From NCBI GenBank assembly GCA_043719155.1, contig JAYSUJ010000002.1, positions 1 to 53,333 on the forward strand: a stretch of DNA of 53,333 bases, given 5' to 3'. Every line of letters begins with the position of its first letter. Position 1 is the first letter of the stretch. Position numbers and translations under genes: made by a program. The DNA comes from a bacterium (GTDB taxonomy: Bacteria; Patescibacteriota; Minisyncoccia; Phycocordibacterales; UBA5272). Below are positions 650-40,651 of this stretch, one piece after another. The notes under the pieces were generated by a model. It was not told where the DNA came from and did not search any database. It saw only the letters and a program-made list of their open reading frames with translations.

Positions 650-1201
650 TTATTTTGCGAATGGCATTCCAATTAATCTGAAAAACACTTCTGCTTCTTT
701 TTTCGACTTTGAAGTAGTGACTACAGTTACACCTAATGAGAAGACATCTTTTAACTCTTCGTCACGAATTTCTGGGAAAATAGTATGTTCTTTTATACCT
801 AAAGACATGTTCCCAAGTTGGTCAACACCAGAGATGTTTACACCACGGAAGTCTTTTGTACGTGGGAAAGCAACTTTTAATAGTTTTTCCAAGAAATCAT
901 ACATTCTGTTTGCACGCAAAGTAACCACTACACCAATTGGGTCACCTGTACGAGTTTTAAAGCTCGCAACAGCCTTTTTAGCCACACGAATAGCAGGTTT
1001 TTGTCCTGTAATTTGGGCAATTCTTTTTGAAACGTGATCATTCCAGTTTTTGTTATTTTTGATACCTTTTCCAGTACCAATAGAAACAACAACTTTGACC
1101 AAACGAGGAGCAGAAAGTGGATTTTTGTATCCAAATTCACCCTTCATAGTTTCAAAAGAATTTTTTTCTAATTCTCTTACACTTTTGTTTTCACTTTTCA
1201 T
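650..1201 (-). CDS. rplE: 50S ribosomal protein L5
   Basis: PRLVKVVV, ITGQKP, AKKAVASFKTRTG, VTLR, FPRTKDFRG, EHTIFPEI motifs; ATG start at 1201 preferred over GTG at 1219. Confidence 0.97.
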   Translation of the reverse strand: MKSENKSVRELEKNSFETMKGEFGYKNPLSAPRLVKVVVSIGTGKGIKNNKNWNDHVSKRIAQITGQKPAIRVAKKAVASFKTRTGDPIGVVVTLRANRMYDFLEKLLKVAFPRTKDFRGVNISGVDQLGNMSLGIKEHTIFPEIRDEELKDVFSLGVTVVTTSKSKKEAEVFFRLIGMPFAK

Positions 1202-1300
1202 ATACCTTGTTTGTCTCACAATGCATTTTTAAATTTACATTTATACTTTGCAGCGAGGGGCTTAGTTTTAAATTTCTTTCGACTTATTTTTTTAATTAAG

Positions 1301-1721
1301 AATTATAATTTGCAGGCTTTGAGGGATTCCGGAACTTGTGAGCTCCGGAAATTATTCATGTTTTTTGTTCACTAGTCTGAAGGGTTCGCCTTCAACTCGA
1401 TTTTCATCTCAATAAGTATATTAAGATGGAAAATTTTTCCATTTGCGCCGCCGAACCGAATCTTTTGCACGACGACTTTTGGGTTCCGTTCGAGTCCAGT
1501 AAAGCCATTGTAGTGAGGTATTACCCTAGCTACGGTTTGCTCTATCGTTTCTCCAATGTGTGTTTCAACCCACAACACCGGCCGGTGTACAGTTTGCAGA
1601 TGGGTTATGGGCGGGAAAGCGTCTGTTTGACGCATTTCACCGCAAATAATTTCCAAGCAGATTTCACTTATCATTGCCGGGGACCTCCTTCAAATCCCTC
1701 AAAGCCTACAAAATTATAATT
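1301..1721 (-). other. Stem-enclosed mini-gene cassette 1 (arms 1301-1328 and 1693-1721; hairpin 1327-1350)
   Basis: aattataatttgcaggctttgagggatt is the near-perfect reverse complement of aatccctcaaagcctacaaaattataatt. Confidence 0.85.
1372..1674 (-). CDS. Hypothetical cassette cargo protein (100 aa)
   Basis: ATG preceded by AAGGAGGT; fills the loop of cassette 1. Confidence 0.7.
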   Translation of the reverse strand: MISEICLEIICGEMRQTDAFPPITHLQTVHRPVLWVETHIGETIEQTVARVIPHYNGFTGLERNPKVVVQKIRFGGANGKIFHLNILIEMKIELKANPSD

Positions 1722-1738
1722 TCGTAACACCAGAGAAA

Positions 1739-1972
1739 CTATTTAGCTAAAACTACGTTTGAGATGTGTAGAGGGTTGGCTTTCTTTACGATAGTTCCCT
1801 TTTCACCATCTTTTTTCGCTTTAACATTTTTAGTTTTCAAGTTTATACCATCAACTAGAACTTGTTCTAGTTTTGGAAAAACTTGTAGTACTTTTCCTGT
1901 TTTACCTTTATCGGCTCCGGCTATTACTTTCACATTATCTCCTTTTTTAATCATATATTTTGGTTTGCTCAT
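1739..1972 (-). CDS. rplX: 50S ribosomal protein L24
   Basis: IKKGDNVKVIAGADKGKTGKV KOW motif, PLHISNV; ATG at 1972. Confidence 0.96.
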   Translation of the reverse strand: MSKPKYMIKKGDNVKVIAGADKGKTGKVLQVFPKLEQVLVDGINLKTKNVKAKKDGEKGTIVKKANPLHISNVVLAK

Positions 1973-1982
1973 TTTATTTTTC

Positions 1983-2401
1983 AATAATGAGTATCACCTA
2001 TTTGTTTACAATAATTACAATCTTTTTCAAGTAGCGAAGTTTTGATTTTAAACATCAAAACTTCGCTAGCACAACTTAAACTTAAAGAATACGCCGACTT
2101 ACAAAATAGAGATAGTACGGCGAGTAGAAACAGTGGAAACGGACAAATATCCCATGATTGAATGTTTTTTTCCAATCTTCGAAATATCGGTCTGCTCTCA
2201 TCTTCGCCTCTTCGTCATCCACTGCTTTGAAAATCTGCACTTTTTCAAGTGACCTTACAATGCCCAACCAATAATGCACATCAACACGCATACGTAATTC
2301 GTACAAATTAGTTGTTCCGTTAGCCATTTATATTCTCTCCTTCGGTTGTGTTGAAAAAAACTACAATTTGTTTTGTAAACAAATAGGTAACACACATTAT
2401 T
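1983..2401 (-). other. Stem-enclosed mini-gene cassette 2 (arms 1983-2030 and 2351-2401; 15-bp perfect hairpin 2032-2068)
   Basis: aataatgagtatcacctatttgtttacaa pairs with ttgtaaacaaataggtaacacacattatt. Confidence 0.85.
2082..2327 (-). CDS. Hypothetical cassette cargo protein (81 aa, FKAVDDEEA motif)
   Basis: AAGGAG SD before ATG; fills the loop of cassette 2. Confidence 0.75.
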   Translation of the reverse strand: MANGTTNLYELRMRVDVHYWLGIVRSLEKVQIFKAVDDEEAKMRADRYFEDWKKTFNHGIFVRFHCFYSPYYLYFVSRRIL

Positions 2402-2429
2402 TATTTTTAAAAGAACTATTTATTTTTAA

Positions 2430-2810
2430 TTATAGGACTTCAGGTGCTAGTGAAATAAGCTTTTGATACCCCAAACCTGCCAATTCTCTTGGTACTGGAC
2501 CAAAAATACGGTTAGCTCGAGGTTCTTTTGCTTGTTTACCTTTTCCGTTAATAATAACTACCGCGTTGTCAGAAAATGAAATGTATGAACCGTCAACTCT
2601 TCTAAAAGGTTTTTTGGTTCGCACAATCACTCCGTAAACTACGTCTTTTCTTTTTATCATCTTTCTTGGTTCAGCAACTTTAATAGACAACACTACCACG
2701 TCTCCTACATAAGCAGTTCTGTGGCGTGTACCTCCCAAAATTGTGAACACCCGACCATGCGTACCACCAGAGTTATCTGTGATAACCACGTTTGTTCCGA
2801 TTTTTATCAT
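2430..2810 (-). CDS. rplN: 50S ribosomal protein L14
   Basis: DNSGG, VGDVV, VIVRTKK, RRVDGSYISFSDNAVVII, RIFGPVPREL, ISLAPEVL. Confidence 0.98.
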   Translation of the reverse strand: MIKIGTNVVITDNSGGTHGRVFTILGGTRHRTAYVGDVVVLSIKVAEPRKMIKRKDVVYGVIVRTKKPFRRVDGSYISFSDNAVVIINGKGKQAKEPRANRIFGPVPRELAGLGYQKLISLAPEVL

Positions 2811-2846
2811 ATTTATTTTTAAATATTTACACTAGTTGCCCTCTTT

Positions 2847-2877
2847 CCTCTCCTTTGTAAGGAGAGGCTAGGTGAGG
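2847..2877. repeat. GC-rich REP-like palindrome cctctcctt-tgt-aaggagagg followed by ctaggtgagg
   Basis: Perfect 9-bp inverted repeat in an AT-rich spacer upstream of rplN. Confidence 0.55.
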
Positions 2878-2947
2878 TAGAGCTAGGCCCTCAAAATATT
2901 TTTATTTTGATTCGATTATTAATTTTAAGCGTGTGACATTAAATTTT

Positions 2948-3179
2948 ATATCCAGTGCCACAAATTAAATCCAATTAAATTCTTTTAGGAAAGTGGACGA
3001 AAGTTGCACACTTTCCCCCACGGTCTAGTTTAATTCCATAGCGTTAACAAGTAACCCTATGAAAAAAATACCAAGACCTACATAAAGTACCCACATTTTA
3101 ACCACCTCCTTTCGGCTTATGATCATGTTGGGGACTCCTAAAAAAATTAAATTAAGATTTAATTTGTGACACTCGATAT
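2948..3179 (-). other. Stem-enclosed mini-gene cassette 3a (arms 2948-2990 and 3136-3179; hairpin about 2988-3016)
   Basis: atatccagtgccacaaattaaatc pairs with gatttaatttgtgacactcgatat. Confidence 0.85.
3025..3096 (-). CDS. 23-aa hydrophobic peptide MWVLYVGLGIFFIGLLVNAMELN (not in ORF track)
   Basis: Hand-translated; preceded by AAGGAGGTGG SD; occupies the loop of cassette 3a. Confidence 0.7.
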   Translation of the reverse strand: MWVLYVGLGIFFIGLLVNAMELN

Positions 3180-3216
3180 TTATTTTTTAATGTGCAGTTT
3201 TTTAAGCAAGTTTTTA

Positions 3217-3590
3217 AGTTTAATTTACTTATTGACTTGGTTGAGGGGACGAGCGAGACCTGATTGTTTCGCTCGTCCCAAGGTTCTAGGTGGTTGGCTC
3301 CCACTCAACTTCTTGAAGCTGAAGCTTGTAGATTTTTAGTTTTCTGAACCGGCTTGGTTCTTGGCTAAAATGTTTGACACGATATTTTTCTGCAGCATTT
3401 TGTGCTTCTTTACTATTGCCACAGAAATATAGAGTTACGTTTTTGCCTTCCCACAAACTTTTGGAAAAATTTACATCCCATACGAACTCTTCATAGAAAA
3501 GTCTGTACGGATGCCCCATATTGAGTTTTTGGTTTCCCATTTTTGTTCCTTTCCCAGTTGCCTCAACCAAGTCAATAAGTTTCTTAAACT
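3217..3590 (-). other. Stem-enclosed mini-gene cassette 3b (perfect 20-bp arms 3227-3246 and 3561-3580; hairpin 3246-3279)
   Basis: acttattgacttggttgagg / cctcaaccaagtcaataagt. Confidence 0.85.
3286..3540 (-). CDS. Hypothetical cassette cargo protein (84 aa from MGNQKL)
   Basis: GAAAGGA before ATG 3540; the longer ORF-track start lies inside the stem arm. Confidence 0.7.
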   Translation of the reverse strand: MGNQKLNMGHPYRLFYEEFVWDVNFSKSLWEGKNVTLYFCGNSKEAQNAAEKYRVKHFSQEPSRFRKLKIYKLQLQEVEWEPTT

Positions 3591-3600
3591 TTGTCTGACT

Positions 3601-3867
3601 TTATTTCACTTTCTTTGTTACCATAAAACTTTTATCTTTTGAATAAGGTTTTGTGGCTACAATTTCTACCATATCGTCGATTTGAAACTCATTATTTTCA
3701 TCATGAGCTTTTATCTTTTTGTCGATAGAGTAGTACTTTCCATACTTAGGATGTTTTACATAACGTGACACTTTTACCACTACAGTTTTTTGCATCTTGT
3801 TACTTACAACTTTTCCTCGCAAAGTTTGTCTTTTTGCTGTTGGTGTTTTTGTCTCAGTTTCTTTCAT
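3601..3867 (-). CDS. rpsQ: 30S ribosomal protein S17
   Basis: LRGKVVSNKMQKTVVV, HPKYGK, KAHDE. Confidence 0.97.
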   Translation of the reverse strand: MKETETKTPTAKRQTLRGKVVSNKMQKTVVVKVSRYVKHPKYGKYYSIDKKIKAHDENNEFQIDDMVEIVATKPYSKDKSFMVTKKVK

Positions 3868-3880
3868 AAATTATATATTT

Positions 3881-4309
3881 TTATTCAAGTTTTCGACCTA
3901 CTACCTTACAAGTAATTGGTAATTTTGTGGCAGCTTTTCGCAAAGCTTCACGCGCTACAGCTTCGGTTGTCCCATCAATTTCGAAAATGATTTTTCCAGG
4001 ACGAACATCTACTGCATAGTGGTCAAGGTCTCCCTTTCCTTTACCCATGGGAGTTTCAGCTCCTTTTTGAGTAATTGGACGGTCGGGGAAAATTCGGATC
4101 CACACCTTACCAGTTTTACCAGCAGCACGAACCAGAGCTTTACGAGCAGCTTCGATTTGATTCGAAGTAATTCTCGCTTGGGTCATGGCTTTTAAACCGA
4201 ACGCCCCAAAAGCCAAGTCGATGCCACGAGTCTCTGCCCTATCCATTTTAAGAGGATTTTTTCGAGCCGTCATCCATTTTCTAAATTTAACTTTTTTTGG
4301 TACTAACAT
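3881..4309 (-). CDS. rplP: 50S ribosomal protein L16
   Basis: MLVPKKVKFRK, QIEAAR, WIRIFPD, MGKGKG, KLP. Confidence 0.98.
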   Translation of the reverse strand: MLVPKKVKFRKWMTARKNPLKMDRAETRGIDLAFGAFGLKAMTQARITSNQIEAARKALVRAAGKTGKVWIRIFPDRPITQKGAETPMGKGKGDLDHYAVDVRPGKIIFEIDGTTEAVAREALRKAATKLPITCKVVGRKLE

Positions 4310-4317
4310 ATTATTTT

Positions 4318-5010
4318 TTACACATTGCCCTTGGCAAGTTTTTTCTTAGAGAATATTTGACCTTTATATATCCACACTTTGATACCCAAAACTCCGTAAG
4401 TCATGTGGGCTTTTTCACGAGAAAAGTCGATGTCGGCACGAAGTGTTTGTAGAGGAATATTTCCCTTTTTCAAAAACTCAGTTCTTGCCATATCTGCTCC
4501 ACCAAGACGTCCACCAAGAGAAATTTTCACTCCCAGCACTTCTTTGTTTTGCATAACTTTTTCAACAGTGCCTTTCAAAACTCTTCGGAATGGAAGACGT
4601 TTTTCTAGACCTTCCGCCACCATCATTCCTACAACACGAGCGTTGGACTCAGCTTGAGCGATCTCTACTATTTCTATTTTAAGGTCTGCTGGAGCAACAA
4701 TTTTCTTTTGCTTCATAAACTTTAAAGTAGCATTTTTAAGATCTACTACACCCTCTCCCTTTTGACCAAGGATAAGTCCAGGTCGAGCAGAAGGGATAGA
4801 TATTTTCCAAAACTTTTGATTTCTTTCCATCAAAATTTCACCAATCATTTTTCCACGCAACTTTTTAACTAGAAATTCTCTAACCAAAACGTCACCTGTC
4901 AAATTTTTAACGAAATCTTTTCCTTTTATCTTGTTTTTAGTTATCCAGTTACTTCTCCAGTCACGGATAACACCAAGACGATAAGAATAGGGGTTTACTA
5001 TTTTTGTCAT
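4318..5010 (-). CDS. rpsC: 30S ribosomal protein S3
   Basis: RLGVIRDWRSNW, ARPGLILG KH domain, GRLGGADMARTE, PLQTLRADID, GIKVWIYKG. Confidence 0.98.
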   Translation of the reverse strand: MTKIVNPYSYRLGVIRDWRSNWITKNKIKGKDFVKNLTGDVLVREFLVKKLRGKMIGEILMERNQKFWKISIPSARPGLILGQKGEGVVDLKNATLKFMKQKKIVAPADLKIEIVEIAQAESNARVVGMMVAEGLEKRLPFRRVLKGTVEKVMQNKEVLGVKISLGGRLGGADMARTEFLKKGNIPLQTLRADIDFSREKAHMTYGVLGIKVWIYKGQIFSKKKLAKGNV

Positions 5011-5025
5011 ATTTTTATTTCAATC

Positions 5026-5352
5026 TTATTTTACTCCTAGAGTTATTAAGATATGAGATGTTCTTTTTAATATCGGGAAAGCTCGACCTCGGGCGCGAGG
5101 CATTGACCTTTTCATAGTCAAACCATCGTCCACACGTGCTTCCTTTACAAATAGACTTTCTCTATTTTTTCCATCGTTTTTCACAGCGTTAGCTATGGCA
5201 GACAAAAGAACTTTTTTCACCGGAGATGAACCTCTTTTTACAAGGTTGTTCAACTCGTTTAGTGCAACATCAACTTTCTTACCTTGGATCAAGGTAGTTA
5301 CTAGTCTAGTTTTACGAGGTGCTTGTCTATAATTTTTTAGTATTGCTTTCAT
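5026..5352 (-). CDS. rplV: 50S ribosomal protein L22
   Basis: RQAPRKTRLV, SAIANA, PRARGRAFPILKRTSHI. Confidence 0.98.
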   Translation of the reverse strand: MKAILKNYRQAPRKTRLVTTLIQGKKVDVALNELNNLVKRGSSPVKKVLLSAIANAVKNDGKNRESLFVKEARVDDGLTMKRSMPRARGRAFPILKRTSHILITLGVK

Positions 5353-5363
5353 AAATTTTTATT

Positions 5364-5711
5364 TTATTTTTTAGCAGGACCTTTAGCTTCAGCTGAGGCT
5401 GAAGAGGCTTTTGCTGCAGCAATTTCCGCTTCTTTCTTTTTCATGTCGATTTCTTTTTGCATCTTTCCTCCATGACGAGTAAACTTACGCGTTAAAGAAA
5501 ATTCTCCAAGTTTGTGACCAACCATATCTTCAGTTACGAACACATCGATAAAAATTTTACCGTTGTGAACTTGGAAAGTAAAACCAACCATTTCCGGAGA
5601 AATTGTTGAACCTCTTGCCCAAGTTTTGATAGTTGCCCCAGCTTTTGCTACTCGCACTTTTCTCATCAGTCTTTCATCTAAGAAAGGACCTTTTTTTAAT
5701 GATCTTGTCAT
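5364..5711 (-). CDS. rpsS: 30S ribosomal protein S19 with Lys/Ala-rich C-terminal extension
   Basis: [32 protein letters not shown]. Confidence 0.98.
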
Positions 5712-5720
5712 ATTATGTTA

Positions 5721-6581
5721 TTAAGCCTGTAGCCCTTTTAGATCGCGCTTCGACTTGCGACGAGTTACAATAAATACATTAGAATACTTCTTCGGTGTAC
5801 GAGTCTTAACTCCAAAGGCTTGTTTACCTTCACGAGTCTTAGGCCCACGACGAAGTCCTACTCCTTGGCGACCTTCACCACCACCGTGTGGGTGGTCAAC
5901 CGGGTTCATGGCAGTACCACGAACTGTAGGTCTCACACCAAGCCAGCGGTTACGCCCCGCTTTACCAAGATTTACAAGGTGATGCTCGTCATTTGAAACC
6001 GCTCCAATACTTGCAAAACAAGTGTCCAACACTTTTCTCACTTCCCCAGAAGGAAGTTTGATAGATGCCCAACCCAAATCTTGTCCAAGCACCTGAATAA
6101 AGTTTCCAGCCGAACGTCCTAGTTTCGCTCCACCTTTAGGGTGCAGCTCAACGTTGTAAATAAAAGTACCTACCGGGATTTTAGAAATAGGAAGTCTATT
6201 TCCTACGGTTACAGAAGCCTCGGCAGAAGTGATAATTTCAGCTCCTACAGCTAAAGACTTTGGAGCTAAAATATATCTTCTCTCACCGTCTTTGTAAACA
6301 ACAAGAGAAATAAATCCACTTCGGTTTGGGTCATACTCTACAGTCTCTACTTTCGCAGGAATGTTTAGTTTGTCAGCATAGATAAAGTCAACTAAACGTT
6401 GGGTTCTCTTGTGCCCACCACCCTTGTGTCGCACAGTTATACGACCATGTCCATTTCTACCAACATGTCTCTTTATACCCTTTGTCAGGGCTTTATGAGG
6501 TTCTTGGGTAGTTATGTATTCTCTATAGTTAATAGAAACTCTATTACGTTGAGATTTTGTATACGGTTTATATGTTTTCAT
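5721..6581 (-). CDS. rplB: 50S ribosomal protein L2
   Basis: GRITVRHKGGGHKR, EYDPNRS, RGTAMNPVDHPHGGGEG. Confidence 0.99.
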   Translation of the reverse strand: MKTYKPYTKSQRNRVSINYREYITTQEPHKALTKGIKRHVGRNGHGRITVRHKGGGHKRTQRLVDFIYADKLNIPAKVETVEYDPNRSGFISLVVYKDGERRYILAPKSLAVGAEIITSAEASVTVGNRLPISKIPVGTFIYNVELHPKGGAKLGRSAGNFIQVLGQDLGWASIKLPSGEVRKVLDTCFASIGAVSNDEHHLVNLGKAGRNRWLGVRPTVRGTAMNPVDHPHGGGEGRQGVGLRRGPKTREGKQAFGVKTRTPKKYSNVFIVTRRKSKRDLKGLQA

Positions 6582-6630
6582 ACTAATTTTTCTTTCGATT
6601 TTAATTTTTCATCTAGCAAACTTTTTGGTT

Positions 6631-6990
6631 TATCCAGTACTACATTTTGCAAAAAACTTTGTTAACTTTGAGGGGTGCACGAGCAGCTACATTTCTGTAA
6701 GCCGCTCATGCTAGGCAAATGATGTCAGATTTCGATTGAATTTAGAGAGGCTTCATCAAAAATTCCCAACTTCAACAATTGCTGAAGTTTATTTTCGAAA
6801 GACTCAGTAACTTCTACGAAACTTGTGGCTTCTTGACATACCGTGAATTGGGTTTTGACACCATCCACGACCAGAGTGAACCTAACATCAAAAACTTTAG
6901 TTTCGCTCGCTTTGTCAGACATGAGACTCTTCCTTTTCTGTTTGCCCTCAAAACTAACAACTTATTTTTCACAAAATGTAGTACTAGATA
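6631..6990 (-). other. Stem-enclosed mini-gene cassette 4 (arms 6631-6674 and 6945-6990; hairpin about 6677-6711)
   Basis: tatccagtactacattttg...ttgttaactttgaggg pairs with ccctcaaaactaacaa...caaaatgtagtactagata. Confidence 0.85.
6725..6922 (-). CDS. Hypothetical cassette cargo protein (65 aa)
   Basis: AAAGGAAG before ATG; fills the loop of cassette 4. Confidence 0.7.
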   Translation of the reverse strand: MSDKASETKVFDVRFTLVVDGVKTQFTVCQEATSFVEVTESFENKLQQLLKLGIFDEASLNSIEI

Positions 6991-7017
6991 TTAAACTTTA
7001 AAAGTTTGTATCATCAT

Positions 7018-7425
7018 TTACAGTACGATAGAGTCTCCGGCTTTCAGAGTGATATAGGCTTTTTTGCCTCCACCACGCATACCATAGCGACCTTTCGTAA
7101 CTTTTTCCTTTTTCGGAGAATTTACAATGTTAATTTTTAGAACAGTAACTTTATATTTTGTTTCCAAAACTTTTTTTAGTTCTGTTTTGTTTTCAGTTTT
7201 TGGTATGTTGAGTACGTATACATTTTTATCTGAAAGCTTGGTAGCTTTTTCGGTAATTCTGTATGAATAATCATTTTTAACCTCAACTTCACTTGTAGCT
7301 TTTACAGCTTTTGCTTTAGGAGTCTTAACTTCTTTGGTTTCTGTTTTTTTAACAGCCACTTTTTTAGTTTTAACCTCTTCTACAATTTCTGCATCTACTA
7401 CTTTCTTTTTTCCGAATAATGCCAT
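7018..7425 (-). CDS. rplW: 50S ribosomal protein L23 with Lys/Glu-rich N-terminal extension
   Basis: ITEKA, NKTELK, YKVTVLKINIVN, KKAYITL; position between rplD and rplB. Confidence 0.93.
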   Translation of the reverse strand: MALFGKKKVVDAEIVEEVKTKKVAVKKTETKEVKTPKAKAVKATSEVEVKNDYSYRITEKATKLSDKNVYVLNIPKTENKTELKKVLETKYKVTVLKINIVNSPKKEKVTKGRYGMRGGGKKAYITLKAGDSIVL

Positions 7426-7460
7426 ATATTTTTTATATTTATTCTTTCGACTTTTATTTT

Positions 7461-7797
7461 AATATTTGAGTACCACCTATTTATTTACAATTATAGATTC
7501 TGATGGTTGGCCAAGTTTCCCTTCGGGAAACTTGGCCTTGGTTCCAGACTAATCTTAGTTAGCCAGACTTGGTTTCTACTGCTTTTTTGTTCTTTGCCCG
7601 TTTCCAGACAAAATATTTTAAGACAGTTATCAAAACCGCGCCAACTAACACAAAGAGTAGACATGCTGCAAGCATTGGTAGCAAAACTTTTACCACCTCT
7701 TGCATCAATAGCTCTAGTTGATGTTGTGTCATCTTACCTCTCTCAGTTGAACCATCAGAGCCTACAACTTATAAATAAATAGGTAGCACTCAATATT
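7461..7797 (-). other. Stem-enclosed mini-gene cassette 5 (48-nt arms 7461-7508 and 7750-7797; perfect hairpin 7509-7537)
   Basis: gagtaccacctatttatttacaattatagattctgatggtt pairs with aaccatcagagcctacaacttataaataaataggtagcactc. Confidence 0.88.
7559..7732 (-). CDS. 57-aa single-TM peptide with basic tail, MTQHQLELLMQEVVKVLLPMLAACLLFVLVGAVLITVLKYFVWKRAKNKKAVETKSG (not in ORF track)
   Basis: Hand-translated; GAGAGGT before ATG; fills the loop of cassette 5. Confidence 0.72.
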   Translation of the reverse strand: MTQHQLELLMQEVVKVLLPMLAACLLFVLVGAVLITVLKYFVWKRAKNKKAVETKSG

Positions 7798-7844
7798 TTT
7801 TGTCAAAGGAACAATTTGTTTTTTAGTTTATGAGACTTTTTGCT

Positions 7845-8507
7845 TTACGCAATTTTCTGTTCTAAGAATTTTGTCATATTTTCTACATCGACCATTACTA
7901 TGTAACGAGTGTTCATAACGTCTAATGCAGACGCCTGAGCAATTGTTTTTACGGTAACTTGTGGAATATTTCGAAACGCACGCAATAATGTTTCAGATTT
8001 TTCAGGGGTATAAATAACCATGTTCCCTGCTTTTCTGAAGGTAAGATTTTTAAAGTTCTCTACTTTTGACAAGTTTGTCAAAATAGATTCTGCTTCTTTT
8101 GTTTTTGGTTCGTTAAGAGTAATTTTGTCTACTAGTAAAATTTTACCAGAACGCAATTTGTCTGAAAGGACCATACAGAAAGCCAGACCACGAGATTTCT
8201 TGTTGATCTTTTTAGAATAATCTTTGTCCGAACGAGGACCGAAGGTAATACCACCACCACGCCAAATAGGTGAACGGATAGAGGCATGACGCGCTCTGTC
8301 CATTTCCTTTTGTGGCCAAGGCTTGATACCACCACCACGAACTTCGTTACGAGTTTTAGTATGGGCAAGTCCAGCTCTTTTGTTTGATTGTTGAGAAACG
8401 ATAACTTGGTGAACCAAGTCTTTGTTAAGCTTCAAACCAAACACAGACTCTGACAGAGTAACTTCCGCAGCTTCTTTACCTAATTGTGTATATTGTTTTG
8501 TTTTCAT
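7845..8507 (-). CDS. rplD: 50S ribosomal protein L4
   Basis: [40 protein letters not shown]; ATG 8507 (MKTKQY) preferred. Confidence 0.97.
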
Positions 8508-8533
8508 ATATTTTATTTTGCACAAAAGTATTT

Positions 8534-8942
8534 TATCAAGTACCACAATTTATTTAGAATGATTGTAAATTTTGTTAGAGGCACAAGCAATTTCATTTCT
8601 TACTTTCGCTTGTGCTAGGGTTTATTGTCTTAAACTCGAGAAGTGCTGATTGTAGTTGTTTCTACAATTTTTTGGAACTCTCCGAACTCGAGAAGTTTCG
8701 CGCCTATGTAGTTGGCACGTGCGTTTGAAATTATCTGGTTTTTATTCACAACAGCATCTTCATCAGATTCTGCTTTAAAAAAAACCATTCTTTCGTTCCA
8801 ATGTGGCTGATCACTGTCGTCATAGTTCCGCGTCGCAACTTGGTACAAGACTAAGTAAGTTTTCACTTTGCCTACTCCTTTTTTTGCTACCCCCAAGAAA
8901 ATTTACAATTTTATTTTTCTAAACAAATTGCGATACTCGATA
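8534..8942 (-). other. Stem-enclosed mini-gene cassette 6 (arms 8534-8573 and 8898-8942; hairpin 8581-8615)
   Basis: tatcaagtaccacaatttatttagaa pairs with ttctaaacaaattgcgatactcgata. Confidence 0.85.
8630..8866 (-). CDS. Hypothetical cassette cargo protein (78 aa, FFKAESDEDA motif)
   Basis: AAGGAG SD before GTG at 8866; fills the loop of cassette 6. Confidence 0.72.
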   Translation of the reverse strand: MKTYLVLYQVATRNYDDSDQPHWNERMVFFKAESDEDAVVNKNQIISNARANYIGAKLLEFGEFQKIVETTTISTSRV

Positions 8943-8968
8943 TTTACTTTTTAATGTGCTATTTCAAT

Positions 8969-9592
8969 TTAGTTAGAAACTATTTCTATTACCCCACCTG
9001 GTATACCTGGCACCGCACCCTTTACGAGCATAGTTTTAGTAACTGGGTCTATTGCTAATACTTTTAAATTTCGTACTGTTATTCTTTCTGTACCCATTCT
9101 TCCGGCCATTTTCATGCCTTTGACTACACGTCCTCCGGCACGCCCACCTCCACCGATAGATCCAGGCTCACGAAGAGCGTGATGCACATTGTGGATAGGA
9201 CCTTTACCTTTGAAACCATGTCGTTTTACAACACCTTGAAAACCTTTACCTTTAGAAATACCAGAGATAGTTACCGTGTCACCTTTTGCAAATTGGTCAA
9301 CACCTAGCACTTGTCCAACTGTAAAGCCAGTGATTTCAGCATCTGCTTTCGCAGCTCTGAACTCCATAACTTTTTGGAAAAGTCCTGCATATTGTTTTAC
9401 TTGAGGCTTGTTTACACGATGTCCTTTTTGCACTCCGTACCCTACTACCAATGCTGGATAACCATGTTTGTTCTTGTCTTTTATCTCAAGAACCGTCATT
9501 TCAGCGAATGATAAAATAGTTACTGCATGTGCCTCTGCGTTTTCATCAAAGTATTGAGTCATTCCTGACTTTTTTGCGAGCATTACTTTCAT
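8969..9592 (-). CDS. rplC: 50S ribosomal protein L3
   Basis: KSGMTQ, GISKGKGFQGVVKRHGF, REPGSIG, KGMKMAGRMG, VKGAVPG. Confidence 0.98.
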   Translation of the reverse strand: MKVMLAKKSGMTQYFDENAEAHAVTILSFAEMTVLEIKDKNKHGYPALVVGYGVQKGHRVNKPQVKQYAGLFQKVMEFRAAKADAEITGFTVGQVLGVDQFAKGDTVTISGISKGKGFQGVVKRHGFKGKGPIHNVHHALREPGSIGGGGRAGGRVVKGMKMAGRMGTERITVRNLKVLAIDPVTKTMLVKGAVPGIPGGVIEIVSN

Positions 9593-9668
9593 ATTTTTTC
9601 TTTTAAGAGGAATCTTTTTTGCATTTGAGATTCATTAACATTAATTTATTAATTTTTAAATTACTTTC

Positions 9669-10041
9669 TATCAAGTATCACATTTTGTTTATAACTTTTT
9701 ATTACAAATTATATTCTTTAAGAAGTGGGAGAGGTTCGACTCTCCCGAAGGTGTTCAGACCGACACTAGCCACGGCCAGTAGTAGCGGTAAAAAAGCCAG
9801 GTGACCAATGCACACGCAGCTAGAAAGTCAAAGAACATGACATAGTAGCCAAGAATATAGCCATATGGCCCGGACTTGAAACCTGTTAACCGCTCAGCAA
9901 TTTTAAAAAATATACTGAGACGGATAACCACAAAGGCTCCGTAGACAAAAATGATCAAGTTCATTGTTGACTCCTATTTTCCTGTTTGGTTTGCCTTCTT
10001 AAAGAATACAATTTGTTGTAAACAAAATGTGATACTCGATA
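9669..10041 (-). other. Stem-enclosed mini-gene cassette 7 (arms 9669-9725 and 9995-10041; hairpin 9727-9746)
   Basis: tatcaagtatcacattttgttta...tattctttaagaag pairs with cttcttaaagaata...taaacaaaatgtgatactcgata. Confidence 0.87.
9755..9964 (-). CDS. Hypothetical two-TM membrane cassette cargo protein (69 aa)
   Basis: AGGAG SD; two hydrophobic stretches; fills the loop of cassette 7. Confidence 0.72.
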   Translation of the reverse strand: MNLIIFVYGAFVVIRLSIFFKIAERLTGFKSGPYGYILGYYVMFFDFLAACALVTWLFYRYYWPWLVSV

Positions 10042-10059
10042 TATTTAATTTGTAAAGAA

Positions 10060-10479
10060 CTACATCATCTTTACCTCCACATCTACCCCACTTGGAAGTG
10101 CTAAGTTTGTCAGAGCTTCGGTCAATTTTGCATTTGGGTTCACAATGTCCAACACTCTTTTGTGAGTCCTTATTTCAAATTGTTCTCTCGAGTTTTTATA
10201 CACGAAAGATGAACGAAGTACTGTATACTTGCGTATCTTTGTAGGCATAGGTACAGGACCGATAACTTTCGCTTCGTACTTTTCGGCAGTTTCCAAAATT
10301 TTCTTAACAGAAATGTCAAGAATTTTTGATTCAAATGCAGAAACTGCTATACGAAGTTTTGGTATACTGTCTACTTTTGCCATCTTCGATGATGACACAA
10401 CTTTTTTTACAGCTACTTTTTTAACAGTAGTAGTTTTTTTAGCCACAACTTTTTTTGTTTTTACTTCTGTTTCTGCCAT
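10060..10479 (-). CDS. rpsJ: 30S ribosomal protein S10 (NusE) with Lys-rich N-terminal extension
   Basis: GPVPMPT, YTVLRS, KNSREQFEIRTHKR, LPSGVDVE. Confidence 0.98.
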   Translation of the reverse strand: MAETEVKTKKVVAKKTTTVKKVAVKKVVSSSKMAKVDSIPKLRIAVSAFESKILDISVKKILETAEKYEAKVIGPVPMPTKIRKYTVLRSSFVYKNSREQFEIRTHKRVLDIVNPNAKLTEALTNLALPSGVDVEVKMM

Positions 10480-10500
10480 AATTTTTTGTTAATGAACATG

Positions 10501-10579
10501 TTACTCTTATCTACTTCTGGGATCACCACCAAACCAATATTATTGATCGGGGTGTGATCCCACAAGGGTTTATGAGTAA
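10501..10579 (-). other. Structured spacer between tuf and rpsJ (possible r-protein leader or processing hairpin)
   Basis: tgggatca...tgatccca and outer ttactc/gagtaa complementarity; no U-tract. Confidence 0.45.
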
Positions 10580-10583
10580 ATAA

Positions 10584-11777
10584 TTACTTAATTATTTTTG
10601 TAACAACACCAGCACCTACAGTTTTACCACCTTCACGAATAGCGAAACGAGTGTTCATTTCTAGTGCTACTGGCGCGATCAGTTTAACTGTAAACTTTGC
10701 ATTGTCTCCTGGCATCACCATTTGTACACCTTCTGCAAGAGAAATTTCTCCTGTAACGTCAGTTGTACGAATGTAGAATTGAGGTTTATAACCTGTCAAG
10801 AATGGAGTGTGACGACCACCTTCTTCTTTCTTTAATACGTAAACTTCAGCTTCGAACTCTGAGTGAGGAGTTACAGACCCTGGTTTAGCAAGTACTTGTC
10901 CACGAGTAATGTCTTCTTTCTTCAAACCACGAACCAGGATTCCAGCGTTGTCGCCAGCTTGCCCTTGGTTAAGAGATTTGTTGAACATTTCAATACCTGT
11001 AACAGTAGCTTTCAAAGTGTCTTTAAGACCTACAACTTCGATTTCTTCACCAACTTTTACTATACCTCTTTCGATTCTTCCTGTAACTACAGTTCCACGT
11101 CCTTCGATAGAGAAGATATCTTCTACTGGCATCAGGAATGGTTTGTCCATGTCACGTTCTGGGATCGGGAAATAGGTATCAAGAGCATTTGTAAGCTCTA
11201 GAACTTTCATTGCCCAAGGGTCAGTATTGTCTTTAGACTCAAGAGCCTTAAGACCTGATCCACGGATAACTGGAGCATTTTTGTCGAAACCGTTTTTCTC
11301 AAGTAGCTCTCGCAACTCTTCTTCAACGATGTCAAGCATTTCTACATCGTCCACCATATCACATTTGTTCATGAATATGATGATTTTTGGCACACCTACT
11401 TGTTTTGCAAGTAGAACGTGTTCACGAGTTTGTGGCATGGCACCATCAGTCGCAGCAACCACTAGGATAGCTCCGTCCATTTGGGCAGCACCAGTAATCA
11501 TGTTTTTGATATAGTCGGCGTGGCCTGGCGCGTCTACGTGTGCATAGTGTCTAGTTGGCGTCTCATACTCGTTGTGTGAGATGTTAATAGTAATACCACG
11601 CGCTTTTTCCTCAGGAGCCTTGTCAATACCGTCGATGCCAACAAGCTTTGCTGAAAACCCTGCGCCATTTCTAGCAAGGGTGTTTAGGATAGCTGCGGTT
11701 AAAGTAGTTTTTCCGTGGTCTACGTGTCCGATAGTTCCCACGTTCATGTGTGCTTTAGTTCGGTCAAATTCTGCCAT
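10584..11777 (-). CDS. tuf: Elongation factor Tu
   Basis: [47 protein letters not shown]. Confidence 0.99.
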
Positions 11778-23884: not shown

Positions 23885-26800
23885 TTAATTTGTAACTTCC
23901 GTAACTGGCACAACTACAGCTGGCTCAACCACTATTACCTTTTCGCTTTTTTCATTAGGCGTAACCGGCTCAGTAACAGGAGAAGTAGGAACGTCTACAG
24001 GAACAATTTCAGGTATAGCTTCTGAAATGTCTACTTTTTTAATCACAGCCTTGGTGTCTAAGTAGTTTCTAAACTCTAGCATTTCACTTTCTGTAAAACA
24101 AGCTTGCCCAACACAGAGCTGTTGTACTGTGACTTTGTTTGCTTTTACGTCATTTGCTTTTAGAGTTGAAATTGCAAGCGTCATGTTCAAATAAACATCT
24201 GATAATTTTTCGAAAGTAGTTTTTATAAGCGCTGTAAATTTATCTGCAATAGTCAATTCTGTATCGTCGGCAGTCGTCCCATCGGAATAAGTATTTTTTA
24301 TAAATACATAAATTTTCCCAGACCCATCATCATCTGTCAAAGCTTGACCTATAACTTGCCCTGACCCTGTGGCTTTCATTGCTTTTCCAGCAACGCTGCC
24401 GGCTGTCAAGAAATCTCCAGCTTTTACCTTACCATTTTCATCTGTAACTTTTACTGGCACACGTCCTGAAAGCCCTACAATCACGGCTTTTCCAGTACCG
24501 TCAGCCTCACCGATAACCATTCCAGGTTTTGTAGAGATAATTCCCAACACATTTTTTTGGTATCTCTTATTTGACTTTGCAACTTGAGAAATACCAGTCC
24601 CGTCTAGAGCTACAACATCCCCTTCTTCTACGGTATTGTCAGCTGTGTAGTACACCTCTGCAAGATCGGCACCTCCAAGTTTGTAAGCAACTACTTTAGC
24701 TCCCGCATCTAATGTAACTGGTGCAGATATTCCCCCAAGTCTCCTACCGAAATTTAGAGTTACAGTTCCACCACCTCTAGTAGATAGCACTCCACTAACA
24801 TTGAAAGCTACCGTTCCACCAGATGTGTTGATATCAACTTTTGAACAATCCGCAGATGCAGAAGCAGTACTTGTGACCAACTCTATTGCCCTAAAATTAC
24901 AACTCCCCAACCCACCTGAGCTCAAAAACCTTACTGAAGCACCACTATTTACCGCATTTGCACCGGAGATAGTCCCAGTTGCACTTATATACCAAACTTC
25001 ATTTGCCCCAACTGTAAAACTAAGATCCGATACAGGAGCCAGAGTTGTACTGTCTGAACTAAATCCAGAACCAAGAACCGCATTTGCATTCGAGCCTGCA
25101 CTTGGGTTTACCAATGTAATTAGTGAAGTGGTGGAAATTTTTCCATTTACAATACTCGTTAATATGTTTGTAGAAGTTGCAAAAGAGATTTCATTTGAAG
25201 TTGTAGCTCGCGCTATATTTTCAACCAAAGTCTTTGTAAAGGTCGCAAAATTCTCCGCGTACAAATTTGCAATATTTGCGTTTAAGATAGAAGTAGAAGC
25301 GACAGTACCAGTTGCTAGAGCGAAAATACCATTTGAGGCAAAATTCGTCGTTGTAGCGTTGGTAATTGTAGCGTTTGTTCCTGTTAGGTTTGTAAACAAA
25401 AGTGAGGTGAAATTTGCCAAACTAGAGAACAAATTAGTTGTCGTTGCGTTTGTAATTGTTGCATTTATTGAAACCAAGCCATCTATTTTTGCGTTCAAAG
25501 TGTTAAACAAAGTTGCAAACAGGTTGGTTGAAGTTGCGTTTGTTAAAGTTGCATTCACAGAAGTTATACCACTTGCAAAAACATCTCCAGAAATAAGTGC
25601 ATTACCATTTACCGACAAGGCTTGTGAAGGTGTATCAGTACCAACCCCCACATTCCCACCGTTTCTGTTTAAAATCAAATTTGAGTAAGAAATACCTTGG
25701 TTCACAGCTTGGATAGACCCATAATCATTTGTAGTGTTGTAGCCAACCAAAAGCTGCTTGTTTGTATCTGTTTTACCACCCACAACCAATTGATATGGAA
25801 CTGGCCCGCTTTGGTCTTGAGTTATATACGTGATCCCCAAGTTTGTTGTACCTGTTGCTGTTAAGTTTGTTGTTGCAAAGTTACTTGAAGTTGCATTGGA
25901 AACAGTTGCGTTTGTAGCTGTAAGATTTGTAAATGCAGCTGTCAAAGCATTAAACAAAGTTGCAAACAAGTTAGTTGTCGTAGCGTTTGTTAGTGTTGCA
26001 TTTGTACCAAGCAAGTTTGAAGTTGAAGTGTTCGTTGCCACTAGGTTAGTAGATGTCGCATTCGTCAGTGTTGCATTGGTTGCAGTCAAGTTTGTGATGA
26101 AAGCAGAAATTGCATTCAACATAGCCGCAAAAGAATTTGTGCTTGTGGAGTTGGTGATAGATGCATTTTCAGAGAATAAATTTGTGTTGGTAGCATTAGT
26201 AATCGAAGCTGTAGTGCCAAACAAATTGTTAATGGTTGTAGAGGCGATAGTACCTGTCGCAAAGGCAAATGTTCCTGTTGAGGTCACATTTGTTATTGAA
26301 AGGTTTGTACCGGTCGCATTATTAAAGAAAAGGTCAAAAACTCGCAACAAATTTACAAATAAATTGGTAGTAGTAGCCGCTGTAAAAGTAGCCAAATTTC
26401 CATATAAATTTGAGATTATGGTTGTACCAGTTGCAGTTAAGTTTGTTGTACTTGCATTTGCAACTTGTAAATTTGTTCCCGTGGCACTTGTAAAGCTTAG
26501 ATTTTGAACAAAAAGGTTTAGGAAATTTGCCCAAGTCGCAAACAAATGGGTTGTCGTAGCTTCTGTTATTGACGCCTTTACTGAAAATAGATTGGTAGAA
26601 GTAGAATTTGTAAATGATGCATTTTCAGAGAATAAATTTGTGTTGGTAGCATTAGTAATCGAAGCTGTAGTGCCAAACAAATTGTTGATGGTCGTAGAGG
26701 CTATGGTACCTGTCGCAAAGGCAAACGTTCCTGTTGAGGTCACATTGGTGATTGCAAGATTTGTACCGGTCGCATTATTAAAGAAAAGGTCAAAAACTCG

Positions 26801-27640
26801 CAACAAATTTACAAATAAATTAGTTATAGTAGCATTTGTTAAAGTTGCAAAAGTTCCAATTAAGTTTGTCGTAGTTGCGTTTAGCAGTGCAGCGTTTGTA
26901 GCTACAAAGTTTGTAGTTGTTGCGTTGGTCAGTGTCGCATTTTGCGACAACAAGTTTACCAAGTTAGCAAAAAGTGAATATATGTAAGTTGAAGTTGCAT
27001 TTGTTAGAGAAGCATTTTGGGCAAATAAATTGGTAGTTGTAGAGTTTACAGACACTAAATTTGTAGAAAACGTGTTTGTAGCTGTAACGTTTGCAAGGTA
27101 TGCATTTTGCCCAGTTATATCTCCTGTTGTTATCTTTTCACTAGTTAAAAAGTGAATGAAAGTAGAATAAATATCTCCAGGTACTGTTGTCTGATAAGGG
27201 TTGGAATTAGTGTTACCCCCAGCGTAAATGTAGGCAGTTGGGCCTACAGCAGCGCCTCCGATTGTTGTTTGATAGACAATAGTAGTAGTACCGTTTCTAC
27301 CATCTTTTCCGTCTCGCCCAGAAACATACACAACTTGGGCGTTTTTAGTGTTCACACTTGTAGCGATAACATTGTTTATTTGTTTAGCTTTGTTTTCGGT
27401 TAAAACTGACCCCTTAGTTTCAGCATTTTCACTTTTATCTACCACTAAAATATTGGTGTTACAGGCTTTGTTGTCTGCCCCTGGCACAAAATCAGCAAAA
27501 GTACAATAAACTTTTATAGAAATGTTTCCGATAAAGTCCATCTTTTTCGTTTCTAAAACACTTTGGGCAAAAGTGTAAGAAAAGGCAAAGACAGTTGTAG
27601 TAATAAGGGCAAAGACAGTGTTTTGGATATTTTTAATCAT
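23885..27640 (-). CDS. Large secreted fibre protein paralogous to the 2906-aa protein, with N-x-T repeats and a Peptidase_G2-like C-terminal domain
   Basis: Shared N-terminal SIxxYCTFAxxVPxxDNKxC; GNVGVGT; GADLAEVY..GIISTKPG..GLSGRVPVKV..GKAMKA..VIGQAL; shared LCxGQxC tail. Confidence 0.85.
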   Translation of the reverse strand: MIKNIQNTVFALITTTVFAFSYTFAQSVLETKKMDFIGNISIKVYCTFADFVPGADNKACNTNILVVDKSENAETKGSVLTENKAKQINNVIATSVNTKNAQVVYVSGRDGKDGRNGTTTIVYQTTIGGAAVGPTAYIYAGGNTNSNPYQTTVPGDIYSTFIHFLTSEKITTGDITGQNAYLANVTATNTFSTNLVSVNSTTTNLFAQNASLTNATSTYIYSLFANLVNLLSQNATLTNATTTNFVATNAALLNATTTNLIGTFATLTNATITNLFVNLLRVFDLFFNNATGTNLAITNVTSTGTFAFATGTIASTTINNLFGTTASITNATNTNLFSENASFTNSTSTNLFSVKASITEATTTHLFATWANFLNLFVQNLSFTSATGTNLQVANASTTNLTATGTTIISNLYGNLATFTAATTTNLFVNLLRVFDLFFNNATGTNLSITNVTSTGTFAFATGTIASTTINNLFGTTASITNATNTNLFSENASITNSTSTNSFAAMLNAISAFITNLTATNATLTNATSTNLVATNTSTSNLLGTNATLTNATTTNLFATLFNALTAAFTNLTATNATVSNATSSNFATTNLTATGTTNLGITYITQDQSGPVPYQLVVGGKTDTNKQLLVGYNTTNDYGSIQAVNQGISYSNLILNRNGGNVGVGTDTPSQALSVNGNALISGDVFASGITSVNATLTNATSTNLFATLFNTLNAKIDGLVSINATITNATTTNLFSSLANFTSLLFTNLTGTNATITNATTTNFASNGIFALATGTVASTSILNANIANLYAENFATFTKTLVENIARATTSNEISFATSTNILTSIVNGKISTTSLITLVNPSAGSNANAVLGSGFSSDSTTLAPVSDLSFTVGANEVWYISATGTISGANAVNSGASVRFLSSGGLGSCNFRAIELVTSTASASADCSKVDINTSGGTVAFNVSGVLSTRGGGTVTLNFGRRLGGISAPVTLDAGAKVVAYKLGGADLAEVYYTADNTVEEGDVVALDGTGISQVAKSNKRYQKNVLGIISTKPGMVIGEADGTGKAVIVGLSGRVPVKVTDENGKVKAGDFLTAGSVAGKAMKATGSGQVIGQALTDDDGSGKIYVFIKNTYSDGTTADDTELTIADKFTALIKTTFEKLSDVYLNMTLAISTLKANDVKANKVTVQQLCVGQACFTESEMLEFRNYLDTKAVIKKVDISEAIPEIVPVDVPTSPVTEPVTPNEKSEKVIVVEPAVVVPVTEVTN

Positions 27641-28564: not shown

Positions 28565-28691
28565 AATTTTAATTTTAAAGCATTACTCAAAGACTTTTAC
28601 TTACTCTAAAAATCTTTACTTTACAAAATACTTTATGTTGTTATAATAGCACAAAATTATACATCAGTCAATATCATTTGTACAGCTATTT

Positions 28692-40055: not shown

Positions 40056-40651
40056 AATTTATTTAATGATTTTTAATGTCGCCAATTTTCTTAGGATTTG
40101 CGAGATTGTAATTGCGACAGAGTAAATTTTAAATTTATTTTTTTATACTTTTAACTTTGTTATTTTATTTAACGCTATTAATTTCTAGAAAAATGAAAAC
40201 TTAGATATTTTTCCCCACCGTTGTTTATACAGAATTATATTTCCCCTATAGCTTAATTTAATTTTAAGCTGGTAGAAACTAGTTTCCTGTTAATTGATGA
40301 TAATAAGAAATTTGTTTTGTCATCTTTGGTTGTGACACCAAAGACCGCATTTCTCGTACGATCGAAATGCAAAGATCGTGATATTAAACTATTGCTAGTT
40401 TTAATACCAAAAGTTTCGATTCACATTTTTCAATATTTAATTGTCAATGATCATCACAAGCTCTAGAGAGATTAAGGACACGACCCCTAATATCACTTTC
40501 TTTTAACGCTTGCAAATTGTTATTACCGATCAATCAATTAATTAATTGACTGAAAAGTCTCCCCCCACACACCTAGATACGAACTTACCCCTGTTTTGTG
40601 ACAAGGAAAAGTGGTTAAAAAAGCGGCAGGAGGATAACTAGTATTGTACCA
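40056..40651 (-). promoter_or_regulatory. About 600-nt structured 5' leader with extended -10 (TGgTACAAT, 40643-40651) and a boxA-like site (40441-40453)
   Basis: Several hairpins; TGATCATTGACAA on the minus strand; no ORF of 60 aa or more within it. Confidence 0.55.

Follow-up and report, generated by a model that had tools for sequence, protein, structure and literature searches.

A boxA-like word at the 5′ border of stem-flanked small-gene cassettes in the ribosomal-protein operons of a Patescibacteriota bacterium

Introduction

The boxA element and the helices that join the leader and the trailer are generally regarded as devices of ribosomal RNA (rrn) operons, with a few single cases in mRNAs and CRISPR arrays, and the RNase III-processed stems between the genes of the polycistronic messages of phage T7 are local hairpins with no boxA. 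The present study deals with a stretch of 53,333 nt (contig JAYSUJ010000002.1 of the assembly GCA_043719155.1, positions 1 to 53,333 of the forward strand, hereafter the window) from a bacterium of the Patescibacteriota (Minisyncoccia, Phycocordibacterales, UBA5272), in which the S10/spc ribosomal-protein operon contains cassettes of small open reading frames (ORFs) flanked by long stems, and with the boxA-like word that stands at the 5′ border of most of these cassettes.

Transcription of rRNA provides the closest described parallel. In the model presented in PMC10250234, boxA with NusB bound to it keeps the leader strand fixed close to the RNA exit, and the leader–trailer helix forms once the trailer emerges. 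In the E. coli rrn leader, as described there, boxA is the NusB/NusE site of the antitermination complex and is followed by the 16S leader–trailer helix, a substrate of RNase III. The cassettes likewise place a boxA-type word only a few nucleotides ahead of a helix of very long range, within which the product is enclosed; in addition, the best match to the same motif is the 16S leader of this genome, and nusB, S10, nusA, nusG, a SuhB-family gene and rnc are encoded. Unlike the rrn leader, the cassettes enclose a protein-coding ORF of 33–100 codons and not rRNA, they are units repeated 11 times within ribosomal-protein operons and lacking a promoter of their own, the core of their motif itself pairs with a partner on the 3′ side and is mostly without the G conserved in the lineage, and no boxB-type hairpin precedes it.

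In mRNA, boxA is known from the suhB 5′ untranslated region, and Baniulyte et al. (2017, PMC5725501) give predicted sites upstream of rpsJ for three genera of gammaproteobacteria. The sites described here share with these cases a location outside rRNA, in translation-related genes, and one further site of the window, at 10478–10497 before the S10 start codon, agrees with the criterion given in that paper, boxA within 50 bp of the start codon. The sites treated in PMC5725501 are, however, single and promoter-proximal, and they repress translation or promote Rho termination, whereas most of the cassette sites lie 75–95 nt upstream of the cassette ORF and before a long-range stem, in an assembly where Rho was not found.

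Phage morons, insertions similar to miniature inverted-repeat transposable elements (MITEs) and foreign gene islets are comparable with the cassettes in their small lineage-specific ORFs, GGAG-type sites and absence from relatives; the cassettes differ in having no detected promoter of their own, in inverted repeats maintained at the RNA level and in being confined to ribosomal-protein spacers. With the T7 stems, the cassettes have in common a structured intercistronic RNA that could split the message, leaving stable ends, but they form long-range helices that enclose a whole ORF and are accompanied by a boxA-like word. While boxA, the leader–trailer helix and boxA in a few mRNAs are known already, their apparent combination around mini-genes in ribosomal-protein operons would be new; a literature search, which was not exhaustive, found no paper on boxA-bracketed genes in such operons.

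Results

Cassettes and the words at their 5′ borders

The assembly holding the window (987 kb, 42 contigs, G+C ~36%, 90% complete; the window is its contig C2) has on the minus strand of this contig the gene order tuf, S10, L3, L4, L23, L2, S19, L22, S3, L16, S17, L14, L24, L5 and S12. Seven spacers of the S10/spc operon measure 420–790 nt, versus a few nucleotides normally, and house eight stem-flanked small-ORF cassettes (1200..10059, minus strand; inverted repeats I1–I3, I5–I9, I12 and I14; folds of −137 to −270 kcal/mol). In each, two long, mutually complementary arms enclose a small ORF of 33–100 codons with a GGAG-type ribosome-binding site, and a GC-rich hairpin comes next. The cassettes, all on the minus strand, are c7 (S10–L3, 9593-10059), c6 (L3–L4, 8508-8968), c5 (L4–L23, 7426-7844), c4 (L23–L2, 6582-7017), c3b and c3a (S17–L14, within 2811-3600, c3a being the second of the two), c2 (L14–L24, 1973-2429) and c1 (1202-1738). 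Three further cassettes with the same border block are present on contig C25 in the spacers S8–L6 (742), S5–L15 (2890) and L10–L7/L12 (16938), which brings the total to 11 in the genome, every one between ribosomal-protein genes.

These RNA-structured insertions form a family, and its conserved 5′ border is the boxA-like word. The initial annotation had placed such words on the minus strand in five cassettes, and all five are present there: AGTTCTTTTAAAA in c2 (2417-2405), TGCACATTAAAAA in c3a (3196-3184), TGTTCCTTTGACAA in c5 (7813-7800), AGCACATTAAAAA in c6 (8960-8948) and AGTTCTTTACAAA in c7 (10061-10049), where it overlaps the S10 stop codon. The words stand 5–7 nt ahead of the conserved stem base ATAT(C/T)GAGT(A/G)(T/C)CAC, and the C25 cassettes have GTACATTAACAA, ATTCTTTTAAAA and GCACATTAACAA at the equivalent border position. 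Two classes can be distinguished, (G/A)TTCTTT(T/A)A(A/C)AA and G(C/T)ACATTAA(A/C)AA, the c5 word having an extra base, and all sites are on the sense strand of the operon, upstream of the 5′ arm. The view that c1, c3b and c4 have no clear site agrees with their scores of −8.2, −8.5 and 2.8 bits, respectively, against the motif described below. The c4 counterpart (CAAACTTTTAAAGTTTA, 6992..7008, minus strand) is a decayed version of the word, in which the outer helix is kept and the boxA consensus lost; c1 and c3b represent a different subtype without the word.

Likeness to the genome's own 16S leader

A motif independent of the cassettes was obtained from the 16S leaders of 33 loci of relatives, reduced to 30 after the near-duplicates L009, L061 and L071 were dropped; an expectation-maximisation (EM) search for one 20-nt motif yielded a position weight matrix (PWM), with no cassette sequence in the training set. 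The EM motif, GTTCTTTGAAAACAAAATAG, consists of a boxA core and an A-rich tail and lies 76–242 nt upstream of the relatives' 16S genes, usually downstream of a promoter and a hairpin. In a PWM scan of both strands of the genome (1,974,886 positions), rank 1 (21.1 bits) was taken by GTTCCTTGAAAATTAAATAT at C23:25129, 158 nt upstream of 16S and downstream of a TTGACT-17-TAGAAT promoter, i.e., by the genome's own 16S leader, where the 16S gene is cut by the contig end. Cassette borders occupied ranks 13, 17, 23, 27, 29 and 37 (13.1–15.2 bits).

In the window, the minus-strand 20-mers found are GTTCTTTTAAAAATAAATAA in c2 (2397..2416; 14.2 bits, rank 23, a score reached by 2/2000 shuffles), GCACATTAAAAAATAAATAT in c3a (3176..3195; 14.0 bits, rank 27, 2/2000), GTTCTTTACAAATTAAATAT in c7 (10041..10060; 13.1 bits, rank 37, 3/2000) and GCACATTAAAAAGTAAATAT in c6 (8940..8959; 10.5 bits, rank 144, 28/2000), while GTTCCTTTGACAAAAAATAT in c5 (7793..7812) has one extra base compared with the leader motif and scores 4.7 bits ungapped and 12.1 bits with a 1-nt insertion. 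In total, the 5′ flanks of 7/11 cassettes score 10.5–15.2 bits, in addition to the c5 score with the indel, and none of the 3′ flanks, read as reverse complements, exceeds 0 bits. About half of every 20-nt score is due to the A-rich tail.

The initial annotation named chance frequency in AT-rich spacers as one of the points on which its proposal could fail; the motif proved enriched over intergenic DNA, dinucleotide shuffles and the spacers of relatives. The non-cassette intergenic DNA contains 9 matches of ≥13 bits in 206,686 positions, two real leaders among them, and the first-70-nt windows of the 11 cassettes contain six sites versus ~0.02 calculated from the intergenic rate. In dinucleotide shuffles of these first 70 nt (2000 each), the observed score was reached 1–3 times for six cassettes; the weaker c5 and c4 gave 201/2000 (ungapped) and 368/2000, and c5, c4 and W49 were not significant in the ungapped test. 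The sense strands of the S10 operons of 20 relatives contain 2 matches of ≥11 bits in total.

The likeness to the genome's own rrn boxA is present and is aligned in register through the following AAATATTGA. An alignment of two leaders and 11 cassette borders is gapless and in register through the core and then AAATAT(T/C)GA, with TT, AA and AATAT shared in register; across these 13 sequences, position 4 is almost always C, and positions 6–7 are TT without exception. The per-position information of the cassettes follows that of the rrn leaders (rho 0.63, p 0.03 for the 12-nt core). The border appears to copy the start of the genome's own 16S leader, comprising the boxA core, the A-rich tail and the first bases of a long, putative leader–trailer-type helix.

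When compared with GYTCTTTAANA, published as the gammaproteobacterial boxA consensus (PMC5725501), the cassette sites agree at 9–10/11 positions and the own rrn boxA at 9/11 (counted by eye). C4 and T6, reported there as altered in a loss-of-function boxA allele (U-141 of rrn in PMC10250234), are retained in all sites, on the assumption that E. coli rules can be carried to this lineage. No cassette contains an exact copy of the strict consensus GYTCTTTRAMAA, which is matched at 2 places in the genome, both in or beside coding sequence.

The genome's own 16S fragment (C23:25287-25894; locus L072, 388-995) represents the 5′ 572 model positions at the contig end and contains an insertion after about position 70; it was found via the PWM scan and had been missed by the whole-genome 16S search.

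Long stems and the outer helix

The arms form 32–69 predicted pairs (−36 to −65 kcal/mol), which is above the ~17-bp mark for a leader–trailer-type helix enclosing a product, and the 3′ arm follows the 5′ arm by 220–400 nt. The 744 arm pairs of 13 cassettes include 79 G·U pairs versus 4 A·C, and because of this excess the stems are recognised as being under selection as RNA of the sense strand, and not as DNA repeats.

In the minimum free energy (MFE) folds of whole spacers, the motif pairs with a short segment immediately beyond the 3′ arm, an A-rich internal loop lying between this pairing and the stem. This outer helix was seen in the MFE folds and duplexes of c6, c5, c4, c3a, c2, C25a and C25b, together with W48 and W49. 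The minus-strand partners in the window are TACTTTTGTGC for c6 (8520..8530; MFE fold, cognate duplex −10.3 kcal/mol), GTCGAAAGAAT for c5 (7441..7451; fold, cognate duplex −11.3 kcal/mol), AAAAAGTTTG for c4 (6617..6626; fold, 9-bp pairing), TTTAATGT for c3a (2936..2943; fold and duplex) and AAAATGAGC for c2 (1967..1975; MFE fold, cognate duplex −5.5 kcal/mol), the last including the L24 start codon. The partner tracks the class of the motif: GCACA goes with TGTGC, TTCCTTTGAC with GTCGAAAGAA and CAAACTTTT with AAAAGTTTG; in C25b, AATTCTTT goes with GAAGAATT, and at the same site of the sister contig described below, GTTCTTTTAC goes with GTAAAGAAC.

The cognate test used the 24 nt before the stem in nine cassettes of the genome and two of the sister contig, c1 and c3b being excluded; cognate duplexes had a mean of −7.3 kcal/mol versus −4.3 kcal/mol for non-cognate ones, and 1/20,000 permutations was as good (p 5e-5). 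Weak partners were found for c7 (−2.6 kcal/mol) and C25c (−1.9 kcal/mol), both of which have high-scoring motifs. The 3′ partners differ in sequence and distance; the 5′ word keeps its pattern and register. Since the partners vary and the 3′ flanks do not score, the conservation of the 5′ strand is that of a sequence, beyond its role as half of a helix.

The possibility that boxA pairing is a native rrn design of the family was suggested by raw duplexes and was rejected, as only 4/27 leaders beat shuffled trailers.

Relatives and origin of the insertions

The S10 operons of 20 relatives contain no such ~400-nt cassettes, some of them having unrelated 2–3-kb inserts. In a genome of the same genus, G001, the corresponding spacers measure 2–30 nt; in the L4–L23 spacer, the sequence common to G001 breaks off immediately ahead of the motif and is found again directly ahead of the start codon of L23, and the c5 word falls within the DNA absent from G001. 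A 5′-border model run on 96 family genomes gave strong matches only here (36.8–49 bits for the eight training copies, 16.8 bits for c4), and in the 95 other genomes it gave ≤22.4 bits, with none of the matches convincing. Because the operons of the 20 relatives lack the cassettes and nearly lack such sites, the motif is taken to have entered together with the insertions.

A metagenome contig from a close relative (the sister contig) contains two cassettes, at S5–L15 and S17–L14, with GTTCTTTTACAAAA and GTTCTTTAAAATAA. Compared with C25:2866-3363 and the window at 2930-3215, these cassettes (loci L048 and L049) have the same borders and different, shorter ORFs encoding hydrophobic peptides of ~30 amino acids (aa); the cargo changes and the bracket stays. 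Searches for more cassettes were made at several levels: a pattern scan of genome contigs returned one chance match, in Spiribacter, a metagenome scan returned 5 loci, of which only the two on one contig are cassettes, and scans of viral contigs returned none. Contigs of two DNA runs cross the cassettes unchanged, low-depth fragments of two more runs of the same study are identical, and no cassette-free or excised form was found in the four runs of this one study.

None of the 11 cassette ORFs reached a family cut-off in Pfam. All 11 have GGAG or AGGA 5–12 nt before the start codon, and the host ribosomal-protein genes have no upstream GGAG. The 16S genes of relatives (L005–L016, L051–L071) have a GGATTAATTCAAT-like 3′ tail, with no CCTCC anti-Shine-Dalgarno sequence in 31/32, the exception being L051, the second 16S of one genome; this survey covers the 16S genes of relatives, the 3′ end of the window genome's own 16S being absent from the assembly. 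Since the relatives' tails lack CCTCC and the host genes lack GGAG, which the cassette ORFs have, these ORFs may be foreign and poorly translated by the host.

Structured leaders just upstream of L5 and L14 (1202-1290 and 2811-2930, minus strand) have counterparts in the cassette-free G001, in spacers of 73 and 118 nt, both with a ...ACGGGAAAAGT(T/C)CCGTAG... hairpin; these leaders have the appearance of native regulatory RNAs that do not belong to the cassettes. The rpsL gene (S12) directly follows L5 (185-1219, minus strand), as at the same junction in G001. The genes for S14, S8, L6, L18, S5, L15 and SecY sit on the separate contig C25, and the L29 gene is absent between L16 and S17.

Genes for Nus factors and RNase III

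The presence of nusB and rnc, which the initial annotation had named as a point to check, was confirmed: nusB (C27:12299-12718, 105.6 bits) adjoins the RNase III gene rnc (245.3 bits), both being on the minus strand of C27 (11584-12718), ~55 nt apart. The genes nusA, nusG and an inositol-monophosphatase gene (Inositol_P, SuhB family) are also encoded.

Other boxA-like sites in the window

The rpsJ gene (10060..10479, minus strand) encodes S10, i.e., NusE, with a Lys-rich N-terminal extension in its translation. The boxA-like GTTCATTAACAAAAAATTAT (10478..10497, minus strand; 11.7 bits, rank 75) ends 1 nt before its start codon, and the stable hairpin I4 (10501-10579, z −4.1) of the tuf–S10 spacer lies just before it, so that a hairpin-then-boxA arrangement (10478-10579) stands at the very gene that encodes NusE. 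The tuf–S10 spacers of relatives contain no counterpart of this site that reaches 11 bits.

Two promoter-proximal sites are located elsewhere on the minus strand. The first, GATCATTGACAATTAAATAT (40433..40452; 17.8 bits, rank 3), with TTGCAA-17-TATTAG upstream, lies ~380 nt upstream of an ORF of 1050 aa with PG_binding_1 (36903-40055); it is likely, from its position, to be a boxA in the mRNA leader of a very long gene and serves as an internal positive control. The second, GTATTTTGTAAAGTAAAGAT (28612..28631; 13.4 bits), stands 10 nt after TTGACT-17-TATTAT and precedes an ORF of 186 aa (28004-28564) and a repeat-rich protein of 1251 aa (23885-27640). Together, the sites at 40452 and 28631 suggest Nus-type processivity signals ahead of long surface-protein genes. 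Eight other high-scoring intergenic sites in the genome have no long-range partner comparable to those of the cassettes.

Discussion

The reading that we tentatively favour, without regarding it as established, is that the word is an rrn-type boxA border, which would load NusB–S10 co-transcriptionally and would later be sequestered in the outer helix. The tethering model of PMC10250234 can be applied to the cassettes because the layout, boxA and then a long-range helix, is the same as in the rrn leader described there. As RNA polymerase transcribes the operon, NusB–S10 would bind the single-stranded motif on its emergence, and NusA, NusG and the SuhB-like protein would join it there. The complex might keep the polymerase processive across a structured segment perhaps poorly translated by the host, and would keep the 5′ arm tethered close to the RNA exit; once the 3′ arm has emerged, the long stem would close. 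The motif would then pair with the short partner beyond the 3′ arm, releasing the factors, and the closed stem would be a plausible RNase III substrate, the cutting of which would free the ribosomal-protein message of the cassette. The binding of the factors, the tethering and the cut by RNase III are inferred.

The part of the initial annotation that described an rRNA-style layout, with boxA right before a long-range helix, stands; its further proposal that the cassettes borrow the antitermination and folding machinery goes beyond the layout, and it gains nothing testable from the location of the words in the operon encoding NusE, although the S10 gene is indeed there. Several results weigh against the borrowing and against the favoured reading as a whole. 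Stems are present also in the three of the 11 cassettes that are without the motif (c1, c3b and c4), and the cassette sites are operon-internal and not promoter-proximal. The 12-nt core alone scores 6.3–11.4 bits in the cassettes versus 14.3 bits for the own rrn boxA, and the G at motif position 8, found in 91% of the relatives' leaders, is present only in c5 among the cassettes. The motif core pairs with its cognate 3′ partner in 9 of the 11 cassettes of the cognate test (all but c7 and C25c), and such pairing is not a general rrn feature of the family; the own 16S trailer and 23S leader are unassembled (the 23S is cut at the contig start). The cassette copies are paralogues, and the statistics given above therefore overstate their independence. 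A search for Rho in the 90%-complete assembly gave only weak matches to other ATPase-like ORFs and not the factor itself, which makes Rho antitermination an unlikely purpose; according to PMC13753749, Rho is absent from some bacteria, and intrinsic termination is a further process with which the rrn complex interferes.

The main rival is a purely structural role, which is possible, if less probable than the reading above. The word would serve only as one strand, the 5′ one, of an outer helix continuing the stem past the A-rich loop, with no Nus factor binding to the word; the helix would give RNase III a longer substrate or hold the flanking cistrons together, and the likeness to boxA would have been inherited from one ancestral cassette or be a by-product of U-rich/A-rich pairing. 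The significant cognate pairing in nine named cassettes is what such a role predicts, as are compensatory changes, e.g., an A–T pair in C25b versus G–C in the sister contig, and the persistence of the c4 helix after the decay of the boxA consensus, which a purely structural role would account for; the merely moderate likeness of the core to the rrn boxA and the paralogy of all copies also suit it. It explains less well why the 5′ strand holds one pattern in a fixed register while the partners vary in sequence and spacing, why no reverse-complemented 3′ flank resembles the motif, and why high-scoring motifs persist in c7 and C25c, where there is scarcely a partner to pair with; moreover, the variable positions coincide in cassettes and rrn leaders, and the likeness to the own leaders extends past the paired part. 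Next in order, and improbable, is that the ~40-nt 5′ border (the motif and the stem base) is the DNA-level end of a mobile or recombining cassette, recognised by whichever enzyme inserts or exchanges the cassettes, with the boxA likeness incidental. Eleven insertions in one genome, all in ribosomal-protein spacers and missing from 20 relatives, would fit this, as would conserved borders around unrelated ORFs, including the different ORFs of the sister contig at two shared sites, and the lack of Pfam assignments; yet the ratio of G·U to A·C pairs points to selection on the sense RNA, the four DNA runs contain no excised form, no recombinase, transposase or clear target duplications were identified (no systematic search was made), and the agreement with the motif of the rrn leaders would be left unexplained. 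A MITE-like element with terminal inverted repeats was rejected, as the ends are asymmetric, with no mirrored 3′ copy of the 5′ motif, and the mismatch spectrum points to selection on RNA and not on DNA.

A promoter seems very unlikely. In this case, TT(G/T/A)A(C/A)A in the 3′ half of the word would be a −35 box and each cassette its own transcription unit; TTGACA in c5, TTTACA in c7 and TTAACA in C25a and C25c lend themselves to it, and one of the matches to the leader PWM, at C25:15395, is itself a likely −35 box. A sigma-70 scan of 1200–10700, however, flags no cassette 5′ border (20 sites versus 22.1 ± 5.0 in shuffled sequence), the positions 16–18 nt downstream (TATCAC, CACAAT, TACCTA) have, by eye, no conserved TAnnnT, and a transcript from there would miss the 5′ arm that is conserved at the RNA level. 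The least credible explanation, already disfavoured, is that of chance words: the spacers are AT-rich, the strict GYTCTTTRAMAA is unmatched in the cassettes and three borders are not significant ungapped, but the fixed register, the restriction to the sense strand and ranks 13–37 of 1.97 million positions are difficult to obtain by chance, as are six sites so rarely reached by shuffles and the two matches in all the operons of the 20 relatives.

If the boxA reading is accepted, it can be extended, more doubtfully, to a portable bracket: boxA with a leader–trailer-type helix might let foreign small genes live in essential operons, each cassette reloading the Nus complex, looping out like a miniature pre-rRNA and being cut by RNase III, with the downstream genes undisturbed. 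Were this true, the Nus complex would be loadable repeatedly within one mRNA, its RNA-tethering role could serve mRNA architecture, and an rRNA-style fold-and-excise module would make insertions into essential operons harmless. The two classes of cassette site, the own rrn site and the two promoter-proximal mRNA sites would provide a small, concrete RNA set for NusB–S10 specificity in an uncultured, small-genome and apparently Rho-less lineage, in which the two-part layout of rRNA brackets protein-coding mini-genes eleven times within the most conserved operons of the bacterium.

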